64,000 nt of DNA, taken from the NCBI GenBank assembly GCA_964016885.1, contig OZ024740.1, positions 336,846,001 through 336,910,000 on the forward strand, read 5' to 3'. Source of the DNA: Eledone cirrhosa (Eukaryota). The position numbers and the translations under genes were made by a program. Positions 10,709 to 64,000 of the stretch are shown one piece after another. The first letter of the stretch is position 1; every line of letters starts with the position of its first letter. Under the pieces are notes generated by a model. It was not told the DNA's origin, ran no database searches, and saw only the letters and a list, made by a program, of their open reading frames with translations.

Positions 10709-11965
10709 ATATATATATATACATATAAAAATGAGAAAACTCATTGCTAGAACAGCCGTTAAAACAGCCAAATGCTGACAAAGACAGCATTGGGTAAAAA
10801 TGCCTCAGAGGACAGAGACCAGTGGTCAACAGAGAGACAATCCACAAGGTGGGTGGCAGGTAGATAAAATATAGAAAAGATTGAAAGAGGAGGAGAACAA
10901 GAAGTGTGCTGGCACACAGAAATGACTGGAAGAAGAAAATAAAGAAAGGCGATGTTCAAGACACACATCTTCACTATCTGAAGCGAGCTCTGATCAAGCA
11001 GACCTATCTTCGAAGGCATTCCAGTCATGCACCTCCACATCAGTTCAAAGTGGTGGACAGGTGGAATTTTTAGTGTCAGGGGAGATGCCATGTTGTATTT
11101 CTGCACTTTGCATTATAATTTCAAATCCTGCAGTGGCTTACTTGAGTGGCAGACTTAAACCTTCACGTGGTTTAACACCACCTGGCTTCTGCATGCCCTA
11201 AGCTGAGTCCACCATGCTATAAACATTCAGGCTAGGTCTCAGCTTTGAGGATACCTTCCTCCCTCTCTTCTAGTAGTCTTGTTGGCCTGAAAAGTACCAT
11301 GGACACTAACCTTCTCTCCCTGACTAAAGATTTTATATATATATATATATTTATATATTACCATGACAAAAAGCACAAAGTCCACCCTGTAAGCTGACTC
11401 GGTGCCACAACAACAAAAGCACCGAGTCCATCCTGTAAGGTGTTTGTAATGGTCACATGAGAAAAAGCACCTAGTCCACCCTGTAAGGTGATAGTGCGGG
11501 TGACACAAAAAAAAGCACCCAGTCTCCCTGTTAAGTGGTTGTTTCAGTGCCACGATAAAAAGCACTCAGTTCACACTGTAACATGGTTAGCTTAGCAAGG
11601 GCATCCAACTGTACAAACTAGATCAAAATGCAGATCTGTATGCGCATGAAGTGGTCTCTGGACCTAAATTGTCTCAAAATGTAAACAACTTGCCTAATCC
11701 ATCTAACCCATGAAAGCATGTAAAATGGATGTTAAATGATGATGATGATATATATATATACTAAGACAATCAATTGCTTTCACTTGAACCTAGACAAATG
11801 TACACCAGTCCAATGTTATCCATGAACTTTATCAAATGCAATAACAGCCAACCCCAATGTGGGACCTTTATGTCAGAGGTCTGTCAACATGGTGTTAGGG
11901 TGTGACATACATATATTACCATCACAATCATTTTACATCTATTTTTCCATGCCATACAACTGTAC

Positions 11966-12268
11966 CTTTGCTTCAGTTCCAACAACCAGGTTTTTCAATT
12001 CAATTATCTTATCATTAATACTAAGACGGTAACGCTTCTCAATGGCATTATGAGCAGTTCTTTTCTCTCCTCTATTCTTTTTCAGCGGGCTATTGTTTAG
12101 ACGGTTGATAGGCAGTTTGTCTCCTTCACTAACCATCTGCAGAGGAATTCTTGTGGTCAGTATTGTGTTGCCATTGGTCACCAGAGAATTTGATGCTGGT
12201 GGACTGGTCAATGCCACAACATTACCATTAACTTCTTGAGGTTTTATCAGTTGAGACTGAATCAAAAG
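11966..12268 (-). CDS. SREBF: SREBP exon encoding basic region and helix 1 of the bHLH
   Basis: [10 protein letters not shown]...[34 protein letters not shown], with the SREBP-specific Tyr in the basic region. tttcag| acceptor, AAG|gtacag donor, 303 nt. Confidence 0.97.
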
Positions 12269-12343
12269 CTGAAACATGAAAAATTAAATTATAATACAGG
12301 TACACACAAATATATATATATACATACACATACACACAAGCAA

Positions 12344-13172: not shown

Positions 13173-13403
13173 ACATTGTGGGTTTGGTTCCCAGGCCACA
13201 GGGCGGCCAGCGCATGGGCCCCTGTTTGCTCATAATAGTGAGAGAGCGGGAGAGATGGAGGCAGTGACAGTGGGAGTTTGGTTCCTTTGTGTTCAGACCT
13301 GGTGTATATGTATATGTTTCAAGGACACACACTCAAGCCACACTTCCTATCTTATCTATTATGCTAGAACAAGCAGGAGGGATGACTGAAAATCAATGGT
13401 TAC

Positions 13404-13790
13404 CTGTTGTAACTGTTGCATATTAACTGGGCTGGTTGTGGTAACATTTTGTAGAGAAGAAATACCATTTGATGTAACATTCACATTCACAGTTGGTTGT
13501 TGTTGCTGTTGCAGTGGCAGTGGCAGTGGCTGTTGTGGTTGTGGTTGTGGTTGTGGTTGTTGTTGTTGTTGTGGCTGTGGCTGCTGTGGTGGCGGTTGAT
13601 GCTGCTGCTGCTGCAGTTGTTGCTGCTGCTGCTGCTGATGATGATGATGATGAGGCTGTACAACTGTTTGTGGAGATGTTGCAACAACTGCTTGGGGTAC
13701 AATTTGTTGAAGAGGCTGTTGCTGTTGTTGTGGTATTGCAGCTGCCTGCTGTTGTGGAAGTTGTTGTTGACGAAGGAGCAGGTTGATTTG
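13404..13790 (-). CDS. SREBF: SREBP coding exon, Q/P/H-rich (QINLLLRQQQLPQQ...TSPVNMQQLQQ)
   Basis: Acceptor tatag|CAA and donor CAG|gtaacc. 387 nt = 129 codons, phase 0/0, compatible with both neighbours. This frame is absent from the ORF track because it has no upstream ATG. Confidence 0.85.
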
Positions 13791-16758: not shown

Positions 16759-16867
16759 ACTATTTTGACATTGGTTCAGAATCAGTGATGAGCATGTATT
16801 GCTGGTGCAGATGTTTCTAAAATTCTAGTCAGACACAAAATACAATGAATGAGAAGTAGCAATTTAC

Positions 16868-17095
16868 CGGCGTATTTTGTAACGATGTAGCTTGTGTGAG
16901 GCTAACAATTGGCTGTTGTATCGAAGATGTTACAGTAACTGCTTGTAACTGGGCTTGGTTGATGAGCATAGCTTGTGCTAGCTGCTGTTGTTGCTGTTGT
17001 TGCTGTTGTTGTTTTTGTTGTTGTTGTTGTTGTTGCTGCTGATGTTGTTGTTGCTGTTGCTGCTGTTGTTGTTGTTGTTGTTGCTGTTGTTGTTG

Positions 17096-17159
<64 letters not shown>

Positions 17160-17634
17160 GGTGGTGGTGATAAAATCTGTGGAGTCTGCACAATAGGACC
17201 AGTATTAACCACATTGGTTACTTCCATAGGTTGAGGCTGTGAAAGAGCTGGTGTTTGTATTTTAAGATCATCTTTGTGTTGGGAAGGTAACAGTGATGCT
17301 TTCAGCTTAGCAAGGAGCAACAACTGGTCATCAGTTAAGTTGATGCAATCGGGGAGATTCTTATCAGAAGCAGGAGCTACTTCAGTTTTTATGAACCCAT
17401 CAAGGACCTGTTGATTGTCAACAGTTTTCTGTGGGATCACTGCTGTTACTACATTAGAAACAACAGGGGAAGTCTTTGGTGCTTCTTCTTTCTCGGGTTT
17501 GACAAAATTAAATGAATTAGCCAAATCTTCAGACAGCAATTCTGGATCTTGTTTAATATTGAAATTAAGTTGACCTCCAAAGAGATCATGTTCTGGTAAG
17601 TTTTGTCCATCAGGATAAATATATTTTATCATAT
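16868..17634 (-). CDS. SREBF: SREBP coding exon (acidic activation domain continuation plus ~60-codon polyQ tract)
   Basis: Acceptor tttcag|AT ATG (phase 1, D-M-I-K-Y, like the vertebrate exon 2 start D-M-L-Q-L). Donor CCG|gtaaat at 16867, phase 0. Open frame throughout. Confidence 0.88.
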
Positions 17635-17828
17635 CTGAAAATGAAACAAAAGAAAAACATGTTAAATGCTGTGTTTCAAATCTAGGTTTCTATTTTAAAA
17701 TCATCTTTTTTATACTTTTGTTGTTTGCTGAAATACAAAGGATAAAAACTTAGTGAAATCACATTATCATGCAAGTGTTATAAATATGGAAGGAAGAAAT
17801 ATGTAAATTAGAATTAAATTAACATAAT

Positions 17829-38799: not shown

Positions 38800-41700
38800 A
38801 CCTATTCTTCTCGCTAACAACTCAACACCACTCCCTCCCGCCCCCACGCACCACCATTATTATTACGTGGACCAATCATAAGCCAGAGGCCTATACTATC
38901 GCTTACCTGGTCGCCTTCGATATGTAGGATGGAAGGACTACGGAGTTCCGGAGAGTTGAAGAGAGAAAAATCTGGACGCTCAGCGACAATGCCAAAGATA
39001 AAGACAAACACACCTCGTGGACGAGAATGCGAGCATTCCTCTTTGTTTCGGCCGCGGGTGGCCAACATAACCCTATCTCCCCCCGCTCCCCACCGTTCCC
39101 ACCCTCCAAACGCAATCCAAAACTTCAGAGTTGGTACCTTGAATGTAGGCACCTTAAAGGGTCACTCTAACGAGGTTGTAGAAATGCTTGAACGTAAGGA
39201 GGTCGATGTTTGCTGTATTCAAGAGACCAGGTGGAGGGGTGGATCTGCTAGATTCATTGTGGGTAGAAAACGATGCTATAAGCTTTTCTGGGTGGGAAAT
39301 GACAATGGGCTGGGTGGAGTAGGAATCATGGTAGCAGAAAAGTGGGCAGATAAGATAATAGACGTAAATAGAGTGAACGACAGAATAATTAAAATAAGAC
39401 TTGTCCTCAATAGAACTACGGTGACAGTAATATCCGCGTACGCACCCCAATCCGGACTGCCCAGCACTATAAAAGACAGATTCTATGAGACACTGATGCT
39501 CACTACCTCCCAAATAACCGACAGTGACTATATAATTATTGCAGGCGACCTAAATGGTCACGTTGGACAACATTGTGACGGCTACGACGAAATCCATGGC
39601 GGCTATGGGTTTGGTACTAGAAATGAGGAAGGCTCCAGAATCCTGGAATTCTGTGACGCAAATAACCTAACTATCTGCAACACTAACTTCAAAAAACGAG
39701 ACAATCACTTGATCACCTACAGATCAGAGGAACATACCAGCCAGGTAGATTATATCCTTACCAGGAGACGTGACAGAGTGACTGTTGTAAACACTAAATC
39801 CCTCCCCCATGAAGAATGCACCTCCCAACATAGACTGATAATTAGTGACCTAATAGTCAGGACGAGACGTACTAGACAACAGAAGAGGACTATCCTCAGG
39901 AGAAAAATATGGAAGCTAAAGGACCCCACAGCCAAAAATAAATTTCAAAGCATATTACTTGATGCTTTCGACAGTAAGGAAGAGCATTTAGAGTCGGACA
40001 ATATAGAGGGACAGTGGGAATTTCTGAAAGCAAACCTACTGATGGCGACAGATGAAGTCTGTGGCTGGAGCAGGCCTGTTGGCAGGAGGAGAGTAACTTG
40101 GTGGTGGAACAGTAAGGTGGAGGAGTCAATCAAGGCCAAAAAGCAGGCTTGGAAAGTAGGGCGGGCTGGAGGAAGTAGAGAAGACTATCAAGTGGCCAAG
40201 AGGGAAGCTAGGGGACAAGTGTACTTCGCAAGAAGGGAAGCAGAGGAAAGAAAGTTCAAGCATGTTCTACAACGCGAGGACCAAAAACGTGAGGTGTTCA
40301 GGATTGCTAGGCAATGTGTCAAGGAAAACAGTGATATTGTCGGGGAGAAGTGTGTACTTAATGATGACGGCGTACTTGCCATCACCGACGCTGATAAGAA
40401 GGTAGCTTGGAAGTGTCAGTATGAAAGGCTACTAAATGAGGAGAATAAATGGGAGAAAGACAGTCTCCCCCACATCGACCCAATAGAGAGACCAGCAGTG
40501 TTAGTCGAGGGTAGTATAATAAGTAAGGCAATCAAAGATATGAAGACGGGTAAGGCGGCTGGGCCTTCGGAAATAGTTGCCGAGATGCTGAAGGCATCTG
40601 GTACGGTGGGACACACCATGGTCACCCGGATAGTCAACCAAGTCATACAGAATGGGGCTGTTCCGAAGGACTGGCGTAGCAGCATCATCGTTAACTGTTA
40701 TAAGGGTAAAGGAGATGCCCTAGATAGGAGTAACTATAGAGGCATTAAATTAATCGACCAGGTCATGAAGGTCACGGAAAAAGTAATAGCGCAACTAGTC
40801 AGAGAGCGAATTGATCTAGATGAAATGCAGTTCGGGTTTGTGTCAGGAAAAAGTACCACAGACGCTCTTTTCATTGTACGACAACTACAGGAGAAGTACC
40901 TAGCTAAAAGTAAACCCCTATACTTAGCTTTCGTCGACTTGGAGAAAGCCTTCGACAGAGTCCCCCGTTCCATTATCTGGTGGGCTCTTAGAAAACTAGG
41001 TGTTGATGAATGGCTTGTGAGAGCTATACAAGCCATGTATAAAGAAACAGTCAGCAAGGTTAGAATTAACAACGAATATAGTGAAGAGTTTAGTGTAAAA
41101 GTTGGTGTTCATCAGGGCTCTGTTCTTAGCCCCCTACTATTTATTATTGCCCTCCAGGCTATAACAGTGGAGTTCAAGACCGGCTGCCCATGGGAACTCC
41201 TATACGCAGATGATCTAACGCTCATAGCTGAAACAATGGCCGAGCTAGAGAAGAAATTCCAAACATGGAAGCACGGCCTAGAATCAAAAGGCCTTAAAAT
41301 TAACCTGGCTAAGACTAAAGTTCTAGTTTGTAAGAAAGAAAATAAGGCTGCGGTCCCCTCCGGGAAGTGGCCATGCTCAGAGTGTAGGAAAGGCGTAGGT
41401 AGAAACTCCATTTTGTGTCCCAAATGCAAAGTTTGGGTGCATAAAAGATGTAGTGGGATCACAGGTAAGCTAACTAAGAACATTGATTTTACATGTGGCC
41501 GGTGTTCTGGGGCAATAAGTAGCAGCAAGTGCCCACAAAATACTAGCTCTTTCAACTGCGCAGAGGGTTCTATAGAAATAGTGGACAGCTTCCGTTACCT
41601 GGGTGACAAAATCAGCAGTGGGGGAGGGTGCTCTGAAAGTACAGTAGCTAGAGTCAGAACTGGGTGGAAAAAGTTCAGAGAGCTCATACCACTATTAGCC

Positions 41701-42550
41701 GCTAAAGGGTTCTCCCTAAAAATGAAAGGCAGGTTGTACGATGCCTGCATACGAACAGCAATGTTGCATGGCAGTGAGACCTGGGCATTGTGTGCAGAGG
41801 ATATACGCAGACTAGAGAGAAACGAAGCTTGAATGCTCCGCTGGATGTGTAATAGTAATATACGTGAACGGCAAAGCATAAACGAACTAAGGAAAAAATT
41901 AGAAATAAGAGGGATCAGATGTTGTTTACTCGAGAGAAGGCTACGTTGGTATGGTCACGTGATGCGCATGAAGGACGATAGCTGTATAACAAAGTGCAGG
42001 GCAATAAAGATAGACGGTAGCCACGGAATAGGCAGACCCAGAAAAACCTGGGACGAGCTGATAAATTCCGACCTCACACACTTACACCTCACCAAGACAA
42101 TGTCACTGGACCGAGACCTTTGGCGGTACTCAGTAATAGAGAAGACCCGCCTTACCTAAATACAAAGTAAAACCTACTACAGTCAGTAGGCATCTCTAAC
42201 AAAATACACCCCCGTCCCACCACCCCCACCCCATCCACACCGCCCCTTTCAATGTAAAGTTATGTTGGTGCCACAACATCCAGGCCGAAACAAATGAGAT
42301 CGTGTAGGTGTCACGTCATAAAAACACACAGTTCACGCTGTAATGTGGCCGTGTAGGCAACACGGTAAAAACCTCCCAGTCCTACACTGTAAATGTGGTT
42401 GGTGTTAGGAAGGGCATCCAGCTGTAGAAAACCCGCCAGATAGTCCTATGCGAGCAAGATAACCACTCTTGCCTCAAGTGGGAAAACCCTCCGTCCAAAC
42501 CCATGCAAGCATGGAACACGGACGTTAAACGATGATGATGATGATGATGA
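38800..42550 (+). mobile_element. Near full-length RTE LINE (family A) with ~390-bp 3' UTR and (GAT)n tail; 5' boundary uncertain
   Basis: ORF above. 3' UTR is shared with copies at 14.3-15.3 kb and 50.1-50.8 kb. Confidence 0.9.
38929..42159 (+). pseudogene. RTE-clade LINE ORF (AP endonuclease + reverse transcriptase + PHD-type finger) with a single premature stop at 41830-41832
   Basis: APE motifs (TLNVGTL, IQETRW, GDLNGH, QVDYIL) and RT motifs (DLEKAFD, QGSVLSP, YADD). The frame continues past TGA, where sibling copies at ~14607 and ~50770 read TGC. Confidence 0.95.
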
Positions 42551-47687: not shown

Positions 47688-48057
47688 TATCTAAGGCGGG
47701 TAAAATTCCCGAGATCCATGGACGAGTTCTCTCCAGCGGTCTCTGTCCCTCATTATCGCTGCCATATCCTGCATCTCCAACAGACCAGTGTCTGTCCTTA
47801 GGGCATCAACATATGTTAACCTTGGTCTTCCTCTTCTAGTGTGTCCATGTAGGGGCTCCCAAAGGAGCACTGAGTGCAATGTCAACTCTGGATGTCGGTG
47901 AGCATGTCCAGCCAACCTCAGTCTCCTCTGTGTCACTTTTGAGCTGACTTTTGGGATGCCCCCATACAGTTCTGAGTTTTTCATCCTCAATGTATACTGA
48001 TTAATGTTCAGAGCCCTCCTCAGCATTCTCGTGTAGCACCCATCCACCATCTGAGTG

Positions 48058-48060
<3 letters not shown>
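47688..48060 (-). mobile_element. 3' fragment of an RTE/RTE-X-like LINE
   Basis: DGCYTRMLRRALNI...RRLRLAGHAHRH...[10 protein letters not shown]...DRDRWR. Partly duplicated at 49762-49953. Confidence 0.85.
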
Positions 48061-48137
<77 letters not shown>

Positions 48138-48311
48138 TAATTTAATATATCAACTAACATAAGCGCACAGATGCACGCCCATGCCAGCAAATACACAGGT
48201 TATGTCATAGTACCTAGGTGGTTCAATGCAGGAGAATGCAGAACAATAATATAAAGGACGTAAAATAAGAAAATATTTTTTTAAAAAAATTTAAAAAAAA
48301 TTTTTTTCCTT

Positions 48312-48421
48312 ACTTAAATTTTCACTCCAACTAATTAGTTTCTGCAATGGGATAAAGACAGTTACGTAATCCAACTGTCGAGAATTCATTGCGTCATCAG
48401 GAAGTCTATTCTCAGTTAAGT
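48312..48421 (-). ncRNA. Type I hammerhead ribozyme (inverted copy)
   Basis: Reverse complement of 49002-49111. Confidence 0.82.
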
Positions 48422-49001
48422 CTCCAGGCAATGCGCGGACACTGGCGGCTCATATAAAAATAATAATAATTCGGTAGATCGAACAGCTTGCGAGGACTGG
48501 ATTCTATGTACCGAAATTCTCACTGCTTCAAGTCAAATGGCCGATTCTAAAGAATCAATCACGTGACACAGAGGCTAGTTAGAAGGAATGGGATGGTAAG
48601 ATGACTGACGCCTACTAACACCCCAAAAAAAATTTTTTTTAGAAGTGGTTTTGACAAGTTTGCTCGACAAATCAGTGATTTGGAGATAAATATAGATAAT
48701 TTAATATATCAACTAACATAAGCGCACAGATGCACGCCCATGCCAGCAAATACACAGGTTATGTCATAGTACCTAGGTGGTTCAATGCAGGAGAATGCAG
48801 AACAATAATATAAAGGACGTAAAATAAGAAAATATTCCTTCTAACTAGCCTCTGTGTCACGTGATTGATTCTTTAGAATCGGCCATTTGACTTGAAGCAG
48901 TGAGAATTTCGGTACATAGAATCCAGTCCTCGCAAGCTGTTCGATCTACCGAATTATTATTATTTTTATATGAGCCGCCAGTGTCCGCGCATTGCCTGGA
49001 G

Positions 49002-49111
49002 ACTTAACTGAGAATAGACTTCCTGATGACGCAATGAATTCTCGACAGTTGGATTACGTAACTGTCTTTATCCCATTGCAGAAACTAATTAGTTGGAGTG
49101 AAAATTTAAGT
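49002..49111 (+). ncRNA. Type I hammerhead ribozyme (retrozyme unit), predicted cleavage after 49094
   Basis: Stem I ACUUC/GGAGU extended by ACUUAA/UUAAGU. CUGAUGA at 49023-29. Stem II GCAAUG/CAUUGC plus GACAGUU/AACUGUC. GAAA at 49081-84. Palindromic stem III ACUAAUUAGU. GUU triplet. Confidence 0.82.
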
Positions 49112-49560
49112 AAGGAAAAAAATTTTTTTTAAATTTTTTTAAAAAAATATTTTCTTATTTTACGTCCTTTATATTATTGTTCTGCATTCTCCTGCATTGA
49201 ACCACCTAGGTACTATGACATAACCTGTGTATTTGCTGGCATGGGCGTGCATCTGTGCGCTTATGTTAGTTGATATATTAAATTATCTATATTTATCTCC
49301 AAATCACTGATTTGTCGAGCAAACTTGTCAAAACCACTTCTAAAAAAAATTTTTTTTGGGGTGTTAGTAGGCGTCAGTCATCTTACCATCCCATTCCTTC
49401 TAACTAGCCTCTGTGTCACGTGATTGATTCTTTAGAATCGGCCATTTGACTTGAAGCAGTGAGAATTTCGGTACATAGAATCCAGTCCTCGCAAGCTGTT
49501 CGATCTACCGAATTATTATTATTTTTATATGAGCCGCCAGTGTCCGCGCATTGCCTGGAG

Positions 49561-49670
49561 ACTTAACTGAGAATAGACTTCCTGATGACGCAATGAATTC
49601 TCGACAGTTGGATTACGTAACTGTCTTTATCCCATTGCAGAAACTAATTAGTTGGAGTGAAAATTTAAGT
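49561..49670 (+). ncRNA. Type I hammerhead ribozyme (second tandem copy), predicted cleavage after 49653
   Basis: Identical by eye to 49002-49111. Confidence 0.82.
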
Positions 49671-49725
49671 AAGGAAAAAAATTTTTTTTAAATTTTTTTA
49701 AAAAAATATTTTCTTATTTTACGTC

Positions 49726-49763
<38 letters not shown>

Positions 49764-49950
49764 TGAGTGCAATGTCAACTCTGGATGTCGGTGAGCATGT
49801 CCAGCCAACCTCAGTCTCCTCTGTGTCACTTTTGAGCTGACTTTTGGGATGCCCCCATACAGTTCTGAGTTTTTCATCCTCAATGTATACTGATTAATGT
49901 TCAGAGCCCTCCTCAGCATTCTCGTGTAGCACCCATCCACCATCTGAGTG

Positions 49951-50074
<124 letters not shown>

Positions 50075-52998: not shown

Positions 52999-53163
<165 letters not shown>

Positions 53164-53169
53164 CTTATA

Positions 53170-53249
<80 letters not shown>

Positions 53250-53250
53250 C

Positions 53251-53379
<129 letters not shown>

Positions 53380-53396
53380 TATACATATATATATAT

Positions 53397-53429
<33 letters not shown>

Positions 53430-53620
53430 TATATACATACATATATACATATATATATACATATATACATATATATATACATATATACATATATATATAC
53501 ATATGTATATACATATATATATACATATATATATACATATATACATATATATATACATATGTATATACATATATATATACATATATATATACATATATAT
53601 ATATACATACATATATATAT

Positions 53621-55807
53621 CATCATCATCATCATCATTTTACGTCCGCTTTTTCCTGCTTGCAAGGGTGGGATGGGTCTTATTCAGCACAGCATCTCTC
53701 CACTCGTCACGGTCCCTCGTCATCTCCACCGTGAGCTTCAATGATCTGAGGTCTGTTCTCACCACCTCCGCCCATGTTTTTCGTGGTCTACCTCTACCAC
53801 GTCTTCTTTCAACTGGCATTTCCTGGCACTTCTTCACCCATCGGTCATCCTCCATGCGCATCACATGTCCATACCACCTCAGTCTCCTCTCCCGTACACT
53901 ACATTCTATCCCTCTCAGACACAGTTTCTCTCTCAACACATTTATGCTGGGTCGTTCACGTACATTTACACTGCACATCCAACGGAGCATGCTTGCCTCA
54001 TTTCTCTCCAGCCGTCGCATATCCTCTGCGGTTGCTGCCCATGTCTCACTACCATGCAGCATCGCACTCCTCACACAGGCATCATACAACCGGCCTTTCG
54101 TACGCAGGGAGAAACCCTTCTTCGTCAACAGAAGAAGCAGCTCCCTAAACTTCTTCCAACCCGTCCTTATTCTAGATACTATGGCCTCGGAACACCCTCC
54201 TCCCATGCTAATCTGATCTCCTAAGTACCGGAAGCTATCCACCACTTCTATAGCGCCCTCTCGCATTTGAAAAATGTGTCTATCAGTGCGACTTCTACTG
54301 TCTAATTTCCCTGTACATCTACTGCATACATATTTCTCCCTACCTGTTAGTTTGCCTGCTATCTCGCTACATCTCTTGTGTACCCAGGACCTGCATTGTG
54401 TGCATTTTATAGAATTTATGCCAGTTCCTTTTCTGCATATCGAACATGGCCATTTCCCTGACGGAATCAGGGTTTTGTCCTCTTTTCTACTCATCAACAC
54501 TTTTGTCTTAGCTAGATTTACTCTCAGTCCTCTTGCTTCCAACTGCTGTTTCCATAGCCGGAATTTATTCTCTAGCTCCTCTACTGATTCTGCTATAAGA
54601 GCCAGATCGTCAGCATAGAGAAGTTCCCATGGACAGCCAGTCTTAAACTCCTCTATTATGGCTTGGAGGACTATAATGAACAAGAGCGGGCTGAGGACTG
54701 AACCCTGATGTACTCCTACTTGTATCTGGAATTCCTCACTAAACTCCATTCCTACCCTGACTTTACTGAGAGTACCTCTGCACAAATTTTGCACTGTCCT
54801 CACAAGCCATTCCTCAACACCTAGCTTCCTTAGAGACCACCAGATGACAGATCGGGGTACCCTATCAAAGGCCTTCTCTAGGTCAACAAAGGCTAAGTAT
54901 AGTGGCTTATTCTTCTCTAAGAACCTCTCTTGCATTTGTCTCACCAAGAAGAGGGCATCTGTTGTACTCTTCCCAGGCACTAAACCAAACTGCATCTCAT
55001 CTAGTTTGACCCTTTCTCTAATTAGTTGTGCTAAAATCCTTTCTGCCACTTTCATAACCTGATCTATCAGTTTTATACCCCTATAATTGCTCCTCTCCAA
55101 AGCATCCCCTTTACCTTTGTAGCAATTTATGAGAATACTGCTGCACCAGTCTTTGGGTATGACACCACCATATATAGCCTGATTGATGATGCGTGCAACC
55201 AGTTTAGTGCCTACGTCCCCTGATGCCTTCAGCATCTCAGCAACTATTCCCGATGGTCTGGCCGCCTTACCATTTTTCATTTCCCTAATCGCCTCTTGGA
55301 CCCTATATTCGTCAATCTCAATAGCTGGTCCCTCTGTCGGATCTACCAAGGGTAATTTCTCTCTCTCCCATTCGTTCTCCACATTCATCAGTCTCTCATA
55401 ATGACATTTCCAGGCCTCCTTTTTCTGGTCATTCGTGACACTAAGTACACCGGCATCATCCCGGACACATTTATCTCCAACAACATCCTGATTTGCATTG
55501 ACACACTGCCTTGCAATGTGGAACACCGCACGCCTCTGATCTTCCCGTCGCAGAACATTGGCAAACCTCCTACTCTCTGCCTCCCTGCGTGCTAAGTACA
55601 CCTGACGTCTAGCTTCTCTCTTAGTGGCTGTATATTCTTCCCTACTCCCACCCTTTTTCCAAGCCTTTCATGCTAGTCTTTTGTCTCTAATAGCCTTATC
55701 TACTGTGCTGTTCCACCACCAGGTCACTCTCTGTCTGGTTGGAGCTCTGCTCCAGCCACAGGTTTCATCAGTAGCCTGCAGCAAGTTGTCACGTAAGAAC
55801 TTCCAGT
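53621..55807 (-). mobile_element. 5'-truncated RTE LINE (family B), RT + PHD finger, ORF runs into the (GAT)n tail
   Basis: 653-aa ORF 53640-55601 with YADD. Clearly diverged from family A in sequence, with almost no 3' UTR. Confidence 0.95.
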
Positions 55808-55912
55808 TATATTGAAGGATTTGATAATATGTGCGAAGAAAAAGAAAATGTTAATATGTATTGAGAATAATGAGTTAGATGATAGGCAGAAAAGAATAAT
55901 GAATTGAGGATG

Positions 55913-55966
<54 letters not shown>

Positions 55967-56019
55967 ACATATATATATATATATACATACATATATATAC
56001 ATATATATATACATATATA

Positions 56020-57997
56020 ATATATAAGAACAAAAGATGGTTAAAGGAGTTCCATGTATTTTATTATGCGCATTTCAAAAACAAATATCATCATGCAATA
56101 ATATTTGTGTTTTCATCAGATAAAACAGGACATGATATGAAGGTTAAAAAACACTTGTGGATAGTTCAGTTTTAAATCAACATATGAGAAGTAGTTTTAG
56201 ATTGATGTGTGATATTGGGAAAAATATTTTATTTAGAGGGGGGGTGGTGAAAAAAAGGAGATGAGAGTGAAGGTGGAGAGGGAGGAGTATAGTGAGGAAG
56301 GATGAGATAGGAGGAGAGATGGGTGATAGAGAGAGAGAGATAGTTTTTATAACTGAGAAAGATATATTGTTTTGCTTAGAGAGGTTGAAAACCGTTGGAA
56401 GATAATGTATAAATTAAAAGAATTTGAAAATTAACGAAGAGAAAAATATGTGCGAAGAAAAAGGAGTTAATATGTATTGAGAATAATGAGTTAGATGATA
56501 GGGAGAAAAGAATAATGAATTGAGGATGAATATTCTAACGTCAAAAAAAATGTATATGTTTACGAAGGATTTTTACAAGGTGATATAGAGTAAGAATGTG
56601 TTGTATTATGTAATAATTGATTCTATGTTAGGCAAGAGTGAGAAAAGGTACAGATTAGGGGTTAGATATTAGAAGAGAAGAAAAGGAAGTGATAAATATG
56701 GGTGATGTAGAAAGAGTAAACAAGTATTATAGAATTTGAAAATTAACGAAGAGAAAAATAATGTAAAGTTAAGGTTTGTATATTGAAGGATTTGAGAAAA
56801 ATAATGTAAAGTTAAGGTTTGTATATTGAAGGATTTGATAATATGTGCGAAGAAAAAGAAAATGTTAATATGTATTGAGAATAATGAGTTAGATGATAGG
56901 GAGAAAAGAATAATGAATTGAGGATGAATAACCTAGCGTCAAAAAAAATGTATATGTTTACGAAGGATTTTTACAAGGTGATATAGAGTAAGAGTAATGA
57001 GTAAACAAGTATTATAGAATGTATAATAACCTTTGAAATAAGGTAGAAAGATGGGTATATTTTTAAAAGAAGTGTATATATATGTGCCTTTGAGAAAAAG
57101 ATTCTAAATTGATAAAGAATTGAATATTAGCTGTATACTTTGTGAAATGTTTTATGGAATTTATGCAAGCAGATAGAAAACAAGTCAGTGCGTCTATTTA
57201 TTATAGAATCTAGATTAGAGATAATGGTAAATTTTTCATTTAGACAGAGATTGCAGATTTTAGATAGAGAACTGTTCAAGTATGAAGACGCAGAAGAAAC
57301 CTTCTTCCAAAAGATGCTATATTTAATGTTTTTGTCTTTCAAGGACCATATGAGTTCTGAGAGAGCCGTGTTGGTTCTTTTAAGTTTGTATTTAAAAGAC
57401 GAATGATGGTTATAAAGATGAGCTTTAAAAGAGGTGGAAGTGGAGCCAAAATAGGTGAAGGAATTGGTGTCAGTTATAACTTTACATTCGTAAATTAAGT
57501 TTTTATCAAGACAATGGTTGTTGAGAGGACATTTATTTTTAATAGGGCAATTGCAATTGCAATTAGAGAGATTATTAATGAGTGACCTAGTGTTATCTAT
57601 AGAAGGAATTGGATTGGAGAAGTTGTTTGCGATAGGAATAATAGTTTCTTGATTTAGAATGGGATTATGAACATTTAGCGAAGTTGTGTTTGACGTTGTA
57701 TTTGGGGTTGTAGAAATTAGCCTAGGGTTTACGATGACGTCGGGAGTACTATTATTATGAAATTCAGTGTTGGAAGGAAGAGATTTAGTATTTAGTATTT
57801 TATTGTTGTGTTTAGAGATAATGTTGGAAATGTTGGAGGATGTAGAATAAGAAAATTTTATGGTGTTAAATATTTTACTATAGATATGTGAGGGAGGGAA
57901 GCATTTATTTAAGGCACTAAAGAATAATTTAGGAATATTGTTATTAATAGAGATGGAGAAAGGAGCATTATACCAGATTATATTTTTGTATCTAGGT
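56020..57997 (-). mobile_element. 5'-truncated Penelope-like element (RT thumb/linker + GIY-YIG endonuclease, repeat-rich 3' region with hammerhead)
   Basis: IIWYNAPFS...CNC..CPL..CL..NLIY...YFGST..FK...NH..SF...CNLCLNEK at 57127-57997. The N-terminal (YI)n part of the listed ORF is microsatellite. Confidence 0.88.
56059..56125 (-). ncRNA. Type I hammerhead in the Penelope 3' terminal region
   Basis: UUUUAU-CUGAUGA-[16-position stem II, 1 mismatch]-GAAA-UGCGCA-UA-AUAAAA. Palindromic stem III. Same strand as the GIY-YIG ORF. Confidence 0.85.
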
Positions 57998-58531
57998 ATA
58001 TATATACATATATATATATATACATATATATATATACATATATATATATACATATATATATATTCATATATATATATAGATATACATATATACATATATA
58101 TATATATATACATATACATATACATATATTTTTATTTTAATTATATCTCATAGAAAATAATCCAACTGGCTTTCCACGAAATACATATAGTTAGCACCCC
58201 AAACACTAAATTTGGATTATACTAACGTATATCCTAATGTTTGTTGAGTGAGACGGTTACCAGTCGGAGTTTAGCTTAAAGCTTTCTCTGTTATTGTATT
58301 AATTATATATATACATATATATATATACATATATATATATACATATATATATATACATATACATATATACATATACATACATATATATATATACATATAT
58401 ATATATATACATATATATATATACATATACATATATACATATACATATACATATATACATATACATATATATACATATATACATATATATATATATACCT
58501 ATATATATATATACATATATATATATAAAAA

Positions 58532-58611
<80 letters not shown>

Positions 58612-58633
58612 ATACATATACATATACATATAC

Positions 58634-58665
<32 letters not shown>

Positions 58666-58675
58666 ATACATATAC

Positions 58676-58744
<69 letters not shown>

Positions 58745-58855
58745 CATATATATATATACACCTATATATATATACATATATATATACATATAAATATACA
58801 TATACATACACATATATATATACATATACATACATATATATAAAGATATATATAC

Positions 58856-61048
58856 ATCATCATCATCATCATCATCATCATTTTACGTCCGCTTTTCCCT
58901 GCTTGCAAGGGTGGGACGGGTCTTATTCAGCACAGCATCTCTCCACTCGTCACGGTCCCTCGTCATCTCCACCGTGAGCTTCAATGATCTGAGGTCTGTT
59001 CTCACCACCTCCGCCCATGTTTTTCGTGGTCTACCTCTACCACGTCTTCCTTCAACTGGCATTTCCTGGCACTTCTTCACCCATCGGTCATCCTCCATGC
59101 GCATCACATGTCCATACCACCTCAGTCTCCTCTCCCGTACACTACATTCTATCCCTCTCAGACAGTTTCTCTCTCAACACATTTATGCTGGGTCGTTCAC
59201 GCACATTTACACTGCACATCCAACGGAGCATGCTTGCCTCATTTCTCTCCAGCCGTCGCATATCCTCTGCGGTTGCTGCCCATGTCTCACTACCATGCAG
59301 CATCGCACTCCTCACACAGGCATCATACAACCGGCCTTTCGTACGCAGGGAGAAACCCTTCTTCGTCAACAGAAGAAGCAGCTCCCTAAACTTCTTCCAA
59401 CCCGTCCTTATTCTAGATACTATGGCCTCGGAACACCCTCCTCCCATGCTAATCTGATCTCCTAAGTACCGGAAGCTATCCACCACTTCTATAGCGCCCT
59501 CTCGCATTTGAAAAATGTGTCTATCAGTGCGACTTCTACTGTCTAATTTCCCTGTACATCTACTGCATACATATTTCTCCCTACCTGTTAGTTTGCCTGC
59601 TATCTCGCTACATCTCTTGTGTACCCAGGACCTGCATTGTGTGCATTTTATAGAATTTATGCCAGTTCCTTTTCTGCATATCGAACATGGCCATTTCCCT
59701 GACGGAATCAGGGTTTTGTCCTCTTTTCTACTCATCAACACTTTTGTCTTAGCTAGATTTACTCTCAGTCCTCTTGCTTCCAACTGCTGTTTCCATAGCC
59801 GGAATTTATTCTCTAGCTCCTCTACTGATTCTGCTATAAGAGCCAGATCGTCAGCATAGAGAAGTTCCCATGGACAGCCAGTCTTAAACTCCTCTATTAT
59901 GGCTTGGAGGACTATAATGAACAAGAGCGGGCTGAGGACTGAACCCTGATGTACTCCTACTTGTATCTGGAATTCCTCACTAAACTCCATTCCTACCCTG
60001 ACTTTACTGAGAGTACCTCTGCACAAATTTTGCACTGTCCTCACAAGCCATTCCTCAACACCTAGCTTCCTTAGAGACCACCAGATGACAGATCGGGGTA
60101 CCCTATCAAAGGCCTTCTCTAGGTCAACAAAGGCTAAGTATAGTGGCTTATTCTTCTCTAAGAACCTCTCTTGCATTTGTCTCACCAAGAAGAGGGCATC
60201 TGTTGTACTCTTCCCAGGCACTAAACCAAACTGCATCTCATCTAGTTTGACCCTTTCTCTAATTAGTTGTGCTAAAATCCTTTCTGCCACTTTCATAACC
60301 TGATCTATCAGTTTTATACCCCTATAATTGCTCCTCTCCAAAGCATCCCCTTTACCTTTGTAGCAATTTATGAGAATACTGCTGCACCAGTCTTTGGGTA
60401 TGACACCACCATATATAGCCTGATTGATGATGCGTGCAACCAGTTTAGTGCCTACGTCCCCTGATGCCTTCAGCATCTCAGCAACTATTCCCGATGGTCC
60501 GGCCGCCTTACCATTTTTCATTTCCCTAATCGCCTCTTGGACCCTATATTCGTCAATCTCAATAGCTGGTCCCTCTGTCGGATCTACCAAGGGTAATTTC
60601 TCTCTCTCCCATTCGTTCTCCACATTCATCAGTCTCTCATAATGACATTTCCAGGCCTCCTTTTTCTGGTCATTCGTGACACTAAGTACACCGGCATCAT
60701 CCCGGACACATTTATCTCCAACAACATCCTGATTTGCATTGACACACTGCCTTGCAATGTGGAACACCGCACGCCTCTGATCTTCCCGTCGCAGAACATT
60801 GGCAAACCTCCTACTCTCTGCCTCCCTGCGTGCTAAGTACACCTGACGTCTAGCTTCTCTCTTAGTGGCTGTATATTCTTCCCTACTCCCACCCTTTTTC
60901 CAAGCCTTTCATGCTAGTCTTTTGTCTCTAATAGCCTTATCTACTGTGCTGTTCCACCACCAGGTCACTCTCTGTCTGGTTGGAGCTCTGCTCCAGCCAC
61001 AGGTTTCATCAGTAGCCTGCAGCAAGTTGTCACGTAAGAACTTCCAGT
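58856..61048 (-). mobile_element. Second copy of the truncated RTE family B with a 2-bp deletion frameshift near 59160
   Basis: Same truncation point and near identity to 53621-55807. Confidence 0.95.
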
Positions 61049-61153
61049 TATATTGAAGGATTTGATAATATGTGCGAAGAAAAAGAAAATGTTAATATGT
61101 ATTGAGAATAATGAGTTAGATGATAGGCAGAAAAGAATAATGAATTGAGGATG

Positions 61154-61203
<50 letters not shown>

Positions 61204-61256
61204 ACATATATATATATATATACATACATATATATACATATATATATACATATATA

Positions 61257-63234
61257 ATATATAAGAACAAAAGATGGTTAAAGGAGTTCCATGTATTTTA
61301 TTATGCGCATTTCAAAAACAAATATCATCATGCAATAATATTTGTGTTTTCATCAGATAAAACAGGACATGATATGAAGGTTAAAAAACACTTGTGGATA
61401 GTTCAGTTTTAAATCAACATATGAGAAGTAGTTTTAGATTGATGTGTGATATTGGGAAAAATATTTTATTTAGAGGGGGGGGGGTGAAAAAAAGGAGATG
61501 AGAGTGAAGGTGGAGAGGGAGGAGTATAGTGAGGAAGGATGAGATAGGAGGAGAGATGGGTGATAGAGAGAGAGAGATAGTTTTTATAACTGAGAAAGAT
61601 ATATTGTTTTGCTTAGAGAGGTTGAAAACCGTTGGAAGATAATGTATAAATTAAAAGAATTTGAAAATTAACGATGAGAAAAATATGTGCGAAGAAAAAG
61701 GAGTTAATATGTATTGAGAATAATGAGTTAGATGATAGGGAGAAAAGAATAATGAATTGAGGATGAATATTCTAACGTCAAAAAAAATGTATATGTTTAC
61801 GAAGGATTTTTACAAGGTGATATAGAGTAAGAATGTGTTGTATTATGTAATAATTGATTCTATGTTAGGCAAGAGTGAGAAAAGGTACAGATTAGGGGTT
61901 AGATATTAGAAGAGAAGAAAAGGAAGTGATAAATATGGGTGATGTAGAAAGAGTAAACAAGTATTATAGAATTTGAAAATTAACGAAGAGAAAAATAATG
62001 TAAAGTTAAGGTTTGTATATTGAAGGATTTGAGAAAAATAATGTAAAGTTAAGGTTTGTATATTGAAGGATTTGATAATATGTGCGAAGAAAAAGAAAAT
62101 GTTAATATGTATTGAGAATAATGAGTTAGATGATAGGGAGAAAAGAATAATGAATTGAGGATGAATAACCTAGCGTCAAAAAAAATGTATATGTTTACGA
62201 AGGATTTTTACAAGGTGATATAGAGTAAGAGTAATGAGTAAACAAGTATTATAGAATGTATAATAACCTTTGAAATAAGGTAGAAAGATGGGTATATTTT
62301 TAAAAGAAGTGTATATATATGTGCCTTTGAGAAAAAGATTCTAAATTGATAAAGAATTGAATATTAGCTGTATACTTTGTGAAATGTTTTATGGAATTTA
62401 TGCAAGCAGATAGAAAACAAGTCAGTGCGTCTATTTATTATAGAATCTAGATTAGAGATAATGGTAAATTTTTCATTTAGACAGAGATTGCAGATTTTAG
62501 ATAGAGAACTGTTCAAGTATGAAGACGCAGAAGAAACCTTCTTCCAAAAGATGCTATATTTAATGTTTTTGTCTTTCAAGGACCATATGAGTTCTGAGAG
62601 AGCCGTGTTGGTTCTTTTAAGTTTGTATTTAAAAGACGAATGATGGTTATAAAGATGAGCTTTAAAAGAGGTGGAAGTGGAGCCAAAATAGGTGAAGGAA
62701 TTGGTGTCAGTTATAACTTTACATTCGTAAATTAAGTTTTTATCAAGACAATGGTTGTTGAGAGGACATTTATTTTTAATAGGGCAATTGCAATTGCAAT
62801 TAGAGAGATTATTAATGAGTGACCTAGTGTTATCTATAGAAGGAATTGGATTGGAGAAGTTGTTTGCGATAGGAATAATAGTTTCTTGATTTAGAATGGG
62901 ATTATGAACATTTAGCGAAGTTGTGTTTGACGTTGTATTTGGGGTTGTAGAAATTAGCCTAGGGTTTACGATGACGTCGGGAGTACTATTATTATGAAAT
63001 TCAGTGTTGGAAGGAAGAGATTTAGTATTTAGTATTTTATTGTTGTGTTTAGAGATAATGTTGGAAATGTTGGAGGATGTAGAATAAGAAAATTTTATGG
63101 TGTTAAATATTTTACTATAGATATGTGAGGGAGGGAAGCATTTATTTAAGGCACTAAAGAATAATTTAGGAATATTGTTATTAATAGAGATGGAGAAAGG
63201 AGCATTATACCAGATTATATTTTTGTATCTAGGT
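61257..63234 (-). mobile_element. Duplicate Penelope-like element
   Basis: The protein at 62364-63234 is identical to the first copy. Confidence 0.88.
61296..61362 (-). ncRNA. Type I hammerhead in the duplicated Penelope copy
   Basis: Copy of 56059-56125 at offset 5237. Confidence 0.85.
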
Positions 63235-63762
63235 ATATATATACATATATATATATATACATATATATATATACATATATATATATACATATATATATAT
63301 TCATATATATATATAGATATACATATATACATATATATATATATATACATATACATATACATATATTTTTATTTTAATTATATCTCATAGAAAATAATCC
63401 AACTGGCTTTCCACGAAATACATATAGTTAGCACCCCAAACACTAAATTTGGATTATACTAACGTATATCCTAATGTTTGTTGAGTGAGACGGTTACCAG
63501 TCGGAGTTTAGCTTAAAGCTTTCTCTGTTATTGTATTAATTATATATATACATATATATATATACATATATATATATACATATATATATATACATATACA
63601 TATATACATATACATACATATATATATATACATATATATATATATACATATATATATATACATATACATATATACATATACATATATACATATACATATA
63701 TATACATATATACATATATATATATATACCTATATATATATATACATATATATATATAAAAA

Positions 63763-63844
<82 letters not shown>

Positions 63845-63866
63845 ATACATATACATATACATATAC

Positions 63867-63898
<32 letters not shown>

Positions 63899-63908
63899 AT
63901 ACATATAC

Positions 63909-63975
<67 letters not shown>

Positions 63976-64000
63976 CACCTATATATATATACATATATAT

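Follow-up and report, generated by a model that had tools for sequence, protein, structure and literature searches.

In a 64-kb window (the whole stretch of DNA analysed, 64,000 nucleotides), copies of a 559-nt tandem unit form two inverted arms inserted at a (TA)n run. Judging from its sequence, the unit belongs to the non-autonomous non-LTR retrozymes, because it carries a type I hammerhead of the Penelope style. We infer that the locus represents one recent insertion made in trans by the reverse transcriptase/GIY-YIG protein of a Penelope-like element (PLE). Probably, a PLE-like enzyme primed from both ends of the target on multi-unit retrozyme RNA, and the resulting cDNAs were joined head-to-head. 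The features of the locus are the following.

47691 to 48059, minus strand: old LINE 3′ fragment, which we take to be RTE-type by likeness, in the left target flank (open frame 47691-48149)
47869 to 48135: flank copy 1, 267 nt, composed of 191 nt of the LINE fragment, (TC)22 and (TA)16
48104 to 48135: (TA)16 target run, whose last 5 nt (48131-48135) are common to the RNA-sense 3′ end of the left arm
48131 to 48836, minus strand: left arm, 706 nt (1.26 units), antisense, whose 3′ end in RNA sense lies 198 nt beyond the predicted cleavage site
48324 to 48405, minus strand: type I hammerhead of the left arm, core at 48400
48834 to 48836: head-to-head inversion junction, ATT, a 3-nt microhomology that belongs to both arms
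48834 to 49733, plus strand: right arm, 900 nt (1.61 units), sense, whose 3′ end lies 80 nt beyond the predicted cleavage site
49018 to 49099, plus strand: type I hammerhead, first copy of the right arm, predicted cut after 49094
49577 to 49658, plus strand: type I hammerhead, second copy of the right arm, identical to the first, predicted cut after 49653
49729 to 49762: (TA)17, with 5 nt common to the right arm and ~28 nt that have no counterpart here in the inferred empty site
49762 to 50028: flank copy 2, identical to copy 1, the pair resembling a long target-site duplication; copy 2 runs into (TA)22 and then into the original right flank

The two arms together amount to 2.87 units of 559 nt ((706 + 900 − 3)/559). 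Four pairwise comparisons between unit copies gave no mismatches (0/341, 0/147, 0/588 and 0/459), and no further copy was found beyond the arms in the 64-kb window. A first-pass annotation of this DNA had noticed the inverted arms and the 3-nt ATT microhomology at 48834-48836, and our measurements of extent and overlap bear this out. Its interval of 48691 to 49762 had the geometry right but began too late, cutting 560 nt off the left arm, which extends to 48131. By chance, 6% of random inversion joins reach a microhomology of at least 3 nt. The annotation had further proposed that the arms, of ~2.9 units, adjoin within ~28 nt and are consecutive parts of one template. Read in RNA sense, the left arm begins at unit position 49146/49705. 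The right arm extends to 49733, so that the two overlap by 29 nt (the mirror reading of the adjacency gives a 100-nt gap). The unit count and the adjacency thus hold; the consecutive arrangement in one template does not follow, because, with both readings allowed, ends on a 559-nt circle would fall within 29 nt of each other with a probability of 0.20. The left arm stops at the foot of an A/U hairpin (49124-49147), which is an independent reason for its ending there.

Both outer ends had been described as lying on TATA-like microhomology with (TA)n, and both are indeed 5-nt TATAT matches, so that the successive junctions have microhomologies of 5 nt (outer), 3 nt (inner) and 5 nt (outer). Since the plus-sense unit harbours only four alternating TA runs of at least 5 nt, the chance of such a match is 0.045 per end and ~0.002 for both. 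The RNA-sense 3′ ends of the arms are 118 nt apart (+80 vs +198 from the cleavage site).

The unit is noncoding, without LTR organisation, and its GC content (0.36) is below 50%. Its concatemer has no stop-free stretch longer than 52 aa, on which ground we rejected a coding viroid-like circle, and the reverse transcriptase and GIY-YIG open frame of an autonomous PLE was not found in it. The hammerhead consists of a 5-bp helix I, the CUGAUGA core, one extra C and a 6-bp helix II, which opens with G-C and continues into a long hairpin extension, followed by an extra A, GAAA and a short palindromic helix III. The extra base after A9, the G10.1-C11.1 pair and the palindromic helix III are given as features of Penelope-type hammerheads in PMC4209133; an additional A preceding G12 is unusual. 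A strict descriptor matched only three times in 64 kb on both strands, always in unit copies. This strict scan missed the hammerhead of a PLE-like fragment described below and a relaxed scan missed that of the unit itself, so neither amounts to a complete census. Rfam returned 12 weak matches, all on the TA/TC-rich flanks and none to a hammerhead model.

The hammerhead core is intact and self-cleavage is predicted. The constrained hammerhead fold has −18.7 kcal/mol vs −19.9 kcal/mol for the free fold, and the circle folds with a z of −4.3 in the hammerhead sense vs −2.1 in the other (40 shuffles each). Among nine Xenopus retrozyme dimers, eight reportedly showed no cleavage in vitro and only one was cleaved (bioRxiv 10.64898/2026.07.22.740005). 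Like the metazoan non-LTR retrozymes (PMC7229834; bioRxiv 10.64898/2026.07.22.740005), the unit is a noncoding, low-GC tandem repeat with one type I hammerhead per unit, occurs in at least two consecutive complete hammerhead copies (right arm), is dispersed and multi-copy, and falls within the length range given in these sources (51-972 bp). It differs from them in being longer than the first-reported 150-450 bp, in its long extended helix II and in being known here from genomic sequence alone.

Public sequencing runs hold a family of such units. The unit is wholly or partly present in 19 of the 23 listed runs, at least half of the words being found in five, and no holder run is recorded as RNA. 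Four of the 23 runs (X1, X4, X7 and X21) were aligned on 48590-49145, a query that covers the unit about once, position by position, and includes the inversion junction. This yielded 1242 X1 contigs and 6637 X21 reads, with identities of 88-100%, as well as five contigs in X4 and four in X7, one X4 contig matching over 401 nt with three differences and one gap. The X21 reads are spread over identity classes, with 1673 at ≥99%, 2086 at 95-99%, 2240 at 90-95% and 638 lower. A dispersed multi-copy family is thus present in the four aligned runs, all of which contain the normal continuation of the unit (joint 48590-48834; 824 reads in X21). None of the 20 listed pieces out of 1267 spans the inversion junction in these four runs, none of which is known to come from this individual; such an absence is expected for a private insertion and equally for an artefact. 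Exact-pattern scans returned no loci in metagenome contigs and none in viral contigs.

Sequence variation in the family points to the RNA level, although weakly. At 49021, the family-majority letter, which turns a U-G pair of helix I into C-G, is carried by 841 of 1249 X21 reads, by 88% of the X1 contig depth and by single contigs of X4 and X7; a change at 49032 retains a helix II pair. We tested 39 variants, namely the 40 listed of 165 minus the one at the junction. Fifteen of them are in predicted pairs, and seven break pairs vs 12.0 expected (p 0.035), a deficit that lends weak support to RNA-level constraint. The window copies all carry letters that are in the minority in X1 and X21 (e.g. 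at 49007, 49021, 48794 and 48815), and therefore both arms stem from one variant. The host species may differ from that of runs X1 and X21; the window genome is that of an animal, rich in (TA)n and LINEs and presumably octopus-like.

Several features of the runs were considered separately. Summed contig depth in X1, which does not represent copy number, is higher from the 3′ half of the hammerhead to ~125 nt downstream. Piles of X21 read ends at 48698, 48905, 48952 and 49037-49040 were rejected as natural ends, all being AATT sites, and we interpret them as cuts by a RAD enzyme, combined with ligation chimeras. In X4 and X7, contigs that end near unit position 49205 were likewise rejected as showing a PLE 31-nt tail. 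The loose end in X7 belongs to a diverged relative rather than to a flank, because 21 of its 30 letters match the unit continuation (by eye). Relatives in X1 and X7 over 49023-49073 keep the core or its 3′ half and have the helix II extension replaced, in one case by a hairpin capped by a UUCG loop (loose ends, by eye).

The target site was examined next to the arms. The old LINE 3′ fragment has no Pfam family (0 families). The two flank copies are identical (0/267 mismatches, TC count included), and the right (TA)17 leads into the flank duplicate rather than into the original downstream flank. Because flank copy 1 is preceded by non-repeat DNA, the ~28 nt of TA have no counterpart in the inferred empty site; this extra (TA) sets the duplication off from the right arm, with no direct abutment. 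The flank duplication needs an additional step in any model, and together with the extra (TA) it is the least expected feature of the locus. Most likely, it arose in the same event as the insertion. A far-staggered second nick, the end of which would have gained (TA) before engaging the RNA, might account for it, as might a templated copy of nearby DNA made during repair, of a kind that occurs at L1 sites (PMC11702581). An earlier duplication is the third option.

From what is seen in the sequence, namely the unit, the hammerhead motif, the arm lengths and identity, the microhomologies and the flank duplication, the steps of the insertion can be tentatively reconstructed. Both target strands would be nicked, one nick lying within (TA)22. 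Each (TA)-ending 3′ end would then anneal to an internal UAUAU of the hammerhead-sense RNA and prime a cDNA. Both cDNAs would pass a unit boundary on a template that may be a circle or an uncleaved multimer of one source variant, and their 3′ ends would finally anneal via ATT, followed by fill-in. The head-to-head orientation relative to the hammerhead strand is the polarity given by two target-primed cDNAs. As for the template, two predicted intact cleavage sites (49094 and 49653) lie within the right arm and one lies within the left. Without jumping, one linear monomer that had been cleaved could therefore not serve as template; the RNA must have been circular, or an uncleaved multimer, or else monomers between which template jumps occurred.

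Further support for PLE-type priming comes from the arm copies, which are all identical whereas only 1673 of the 6637 X21 reads reach 99%, and from the same window, where a PLE-like GIY-YIG fragment ends in (TA)n and carries a hammerhead of its own. Other observations count against it. The distance between the 3′ ends is 118 nt, unlike the PLE tail of 30-40 nt, which is an optional PLE feature; microhomology at all junctions also fits DNA repair; the start sites of a purified PLE protein on RNA had no homology to the target (PMC11167929), unlike the 5-nt TATAT matches; and the duplication is 267 nt long vs the 8-10 bp reported for PLEs (PMC3846280). The unusual A preceding G12, the lack of a hammerhead among the Rfam matches, the uncleaved Xenopus dimers and the dissimilarity of the unit to the PLE-like fragment also weigh against it.

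The earlier interpretation as twin priming was partly upheld: priming from both ends, head-to-head arms and microhomology at the junction are all found, and a single template and a short abutting duplication are not. With a tandem template, the 'same RNA' criterion of twin priming keeps little of its power. The outcome would look no different with two RNAs, because a PLE-like protein extends both nicked strands in vitro (PMC11167929), and the identical copies fit one molecule or one master locus. We lean slightly away from one RNA, as in strict twin priming, and towards two. The proposed copying of a multimer or circle likewise holds insofar as the template exceeded one unit, but that model explains neither the 267-nt duplication nor the additional (TA) to the right. 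A bolder version, which we regard as quite unlikely, would explain both with one circular RNA: the strands would be nicked 267 nt apart, the second nick lying in non-repeat DNA, where ~14 TA repeats would first be built in a telomerase-like manner by stuttering on UAUAU, and both ends would roll around the 559-nt circle. If this were true, such elements would not only target (TA)n but also make part of the (TA)n next to them, and rolling-circle reverse transcription would have left a direct genomic footprint at this locus.

Several known systems resemble the locus in part. A typical PLE insertion is a partial tandem with an adjacent inverted 5′-truncated copy (PMC8557442), so that the statement of the first-pass annotation that inverted partial tandems are typical of Penelope reflects textbook PLE structure, and the commonest inverted arrangement is head-to-head (PMC3846280). 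The locus matches this, its inverted 5′-truncated copy being on the 5′ side. It also has a (TA)n target, as do almost all Hydra-clade families and the Naiad clade (PMC8557442), although the right-hand (TA)n is not the original continuation. A hammerhead shortly upstream of the 3′ end and internal priming on both strands are further similarities: the purified PLE protein cut and extended both strands, started internally and used uncleaved RNA, which it preferred (PMC11167929). Unlike PLEs, the unit has no reverse transcriptase or endonuclease frame.

L1 twin priming (PMC2912911, PMC11702581) similarly produces two opposed target-primed cDNAs, outer and inversion microhomologies and a direct flank duplication. 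The locus differs in lacking a poly(A) end, in its 29-nt overlap, as L1 breakpoints often lie within 1-10 bp of each other, and in its 267-nt duplication, vs 12-18 bp for L1 (PMC11702581). Duplicated flanks on both sides of the insertion, with a median of 900 bp for Dualen and 126 bp for R9, are known from these LINEs (PMC9977147), which are autonomous and for which the accessible text of that source mentions no extra (TA)n. Set against these systems, the element is a retrozyme that was inserted in a manner known from PLEs and whose flank duplication is unusually long.

Earlier work describes non-LTR retrozymes, their circles and a PLE-enzyme model, in which a primed circle gives tandem cDNA (PMC7229834), as well as the kinship of retrozymes with PLE terminal repeats (bioRxiv 10.64898/2026.07.22.740005). 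The link has so far been built on shared hammerheads, co-occurrence and terminal-sequence trees, and the mechanism of mobilisation is called unresolved in the portions consulted of these two sources. An inverted head-to-head retrozyme insertion with a 267-nt flank duplication was not found in those same portions, nor was any inverted, both-end-primed retrozyme insertion in a literature search covering main texts and few subscription journals. A very young insertion with the inverted partial tandem of PLEs, (TA)n-primed ends and arms longer than a unit provides insertion-level evidence for the retrozyme-PLE link. It also offers a testable statistic, namely end positions and polarity across young copies. 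The locus is a lead and not a proof, because one locus cannot separate a circle from a multimer.

Copying at the DNA level is the alternative that we take most seriously, even if it appears unlikely. A break in (TA)n would have been repaired via strand invasion and template switches into a tandem retrozyme array or an older inverted insertion, and the strand would have returned 267 nt upstream, yielding the flank duplication. Such a path would in a single step deliver the (TA)17, from the donor flank, and the long duplication, with its 1-nt microhomology. It also agrees with the short microhomologies found at every junction and with the tandem continuity of the unit in the four aligned runs. 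Both TATAT ends and the head-to-head hammerhead polarity would then be without an RNA reason, however, and no other copy of the unit is present in the window. With a donor that was itself inverted, the RNA origin is simply shifted to that donor. Self-priming, proposed earlier for PLE inverted repeats (PMC3846280), seems highly improbable to us. Here, the cDNA primed at the left (TA)n would fold back at ATT, copy itself over 459 nt, slip back one unit, add 441 nt and join the right flank. The first 459 nt of the right arm do mirror the left arm, and the perfect identity would be accounted for. A plain fold-back would nevertheless enter (TA)16(GA)n after 49292; because the right arm continues there in unit register, a second switch is needed. 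The junction also lacks a stable hairpin (−0.9 kcal/mol), and the fold-back would need a loop of 244 nt.

The same geometry bears on an assembly or library artefact, i.e. a read chimera or an erroneous join of repeat copies or of haplotypes, which we hold to be very unlikely. The first-pass annotation had named a fold-back artefact as what would overturn its reading. We rejected a simple fold-back chimera, as its return strand would read TA and then GA repeats after 459 nt, whereas the unit register continues for 441 nt, which excludes a single switch. Fold-back chimeras moreover invert the flank, whereas at this locus it is duplicated in direct orientation and the arms consist of nothing but element sequence; both ends on rare TATAT sites would be a coincidence, and the window has no Ns. 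Arguing for an artefact are the lack of any mismatch between the arms or in the flank duplicate, the lack of a spanning piece among those listed, the presence of a 5.2-kb near-identical tandem duplication in the window and the trouble that PLE inverted structures are known to cause in assemblies (PMC8557442).

The PLE-like fragment at 57127-57990 (minus strand), which has its hammerhead near its (TA)n end, may represent a candidate donor class in this genome. It harbours CxCx5C, CxxC and CxH motifs that, by eye, are like those of the Hydra clade (PMC8557442). As a lead, it scored 0.95 against an Atlas cluster with GIY-YIG in 11% of its members; Pfam gave no family. Its DNA similarity to the unit (score 29) lies within the range of shuffled sequences (mean 25.6, maximum 35), and no terminal sequence common to the unit and to this one PLE fragment of the window was found.

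Penelope-like, GIY-YIG-like 3′ fragments with cysteine motifs resembling those of the Hydra clade occupy 55808-58300 and 61049-63547 on the minus strand, with minimal hammerheads at 56119 and 61356 and (TA)n in or near both sides. These blocks have internal partial repeats and a 110-nt re-copied piece with a TA run between it and the 3′ end. They lie in a ~5.2-kb tandem duplication (53066-58769 vs 58304-64000, 98.4% identical) that also contains a LINE fragment, and which is either real or a haplotype mis-assembly. Elsewhere in the window, a 1004-aa LINE frame (38818-42159, minus strand), presumably RTE-type, is followed after one stop by 108 aa and shows endonuclease- and reverse transcriptase-like motifs; it has many shorter relatives in the window. 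Exons of a bHLH gene with polyglutamine tracts, matching Pfam HLH and which we assume to be SREBP-like, are at 11939-12283, 13359-13790 and 16829-17689 (minus strand). Finally, a minisatellite at 891-2222, with 49 copies of a 27-nt period, has stop-free frames on both strands.
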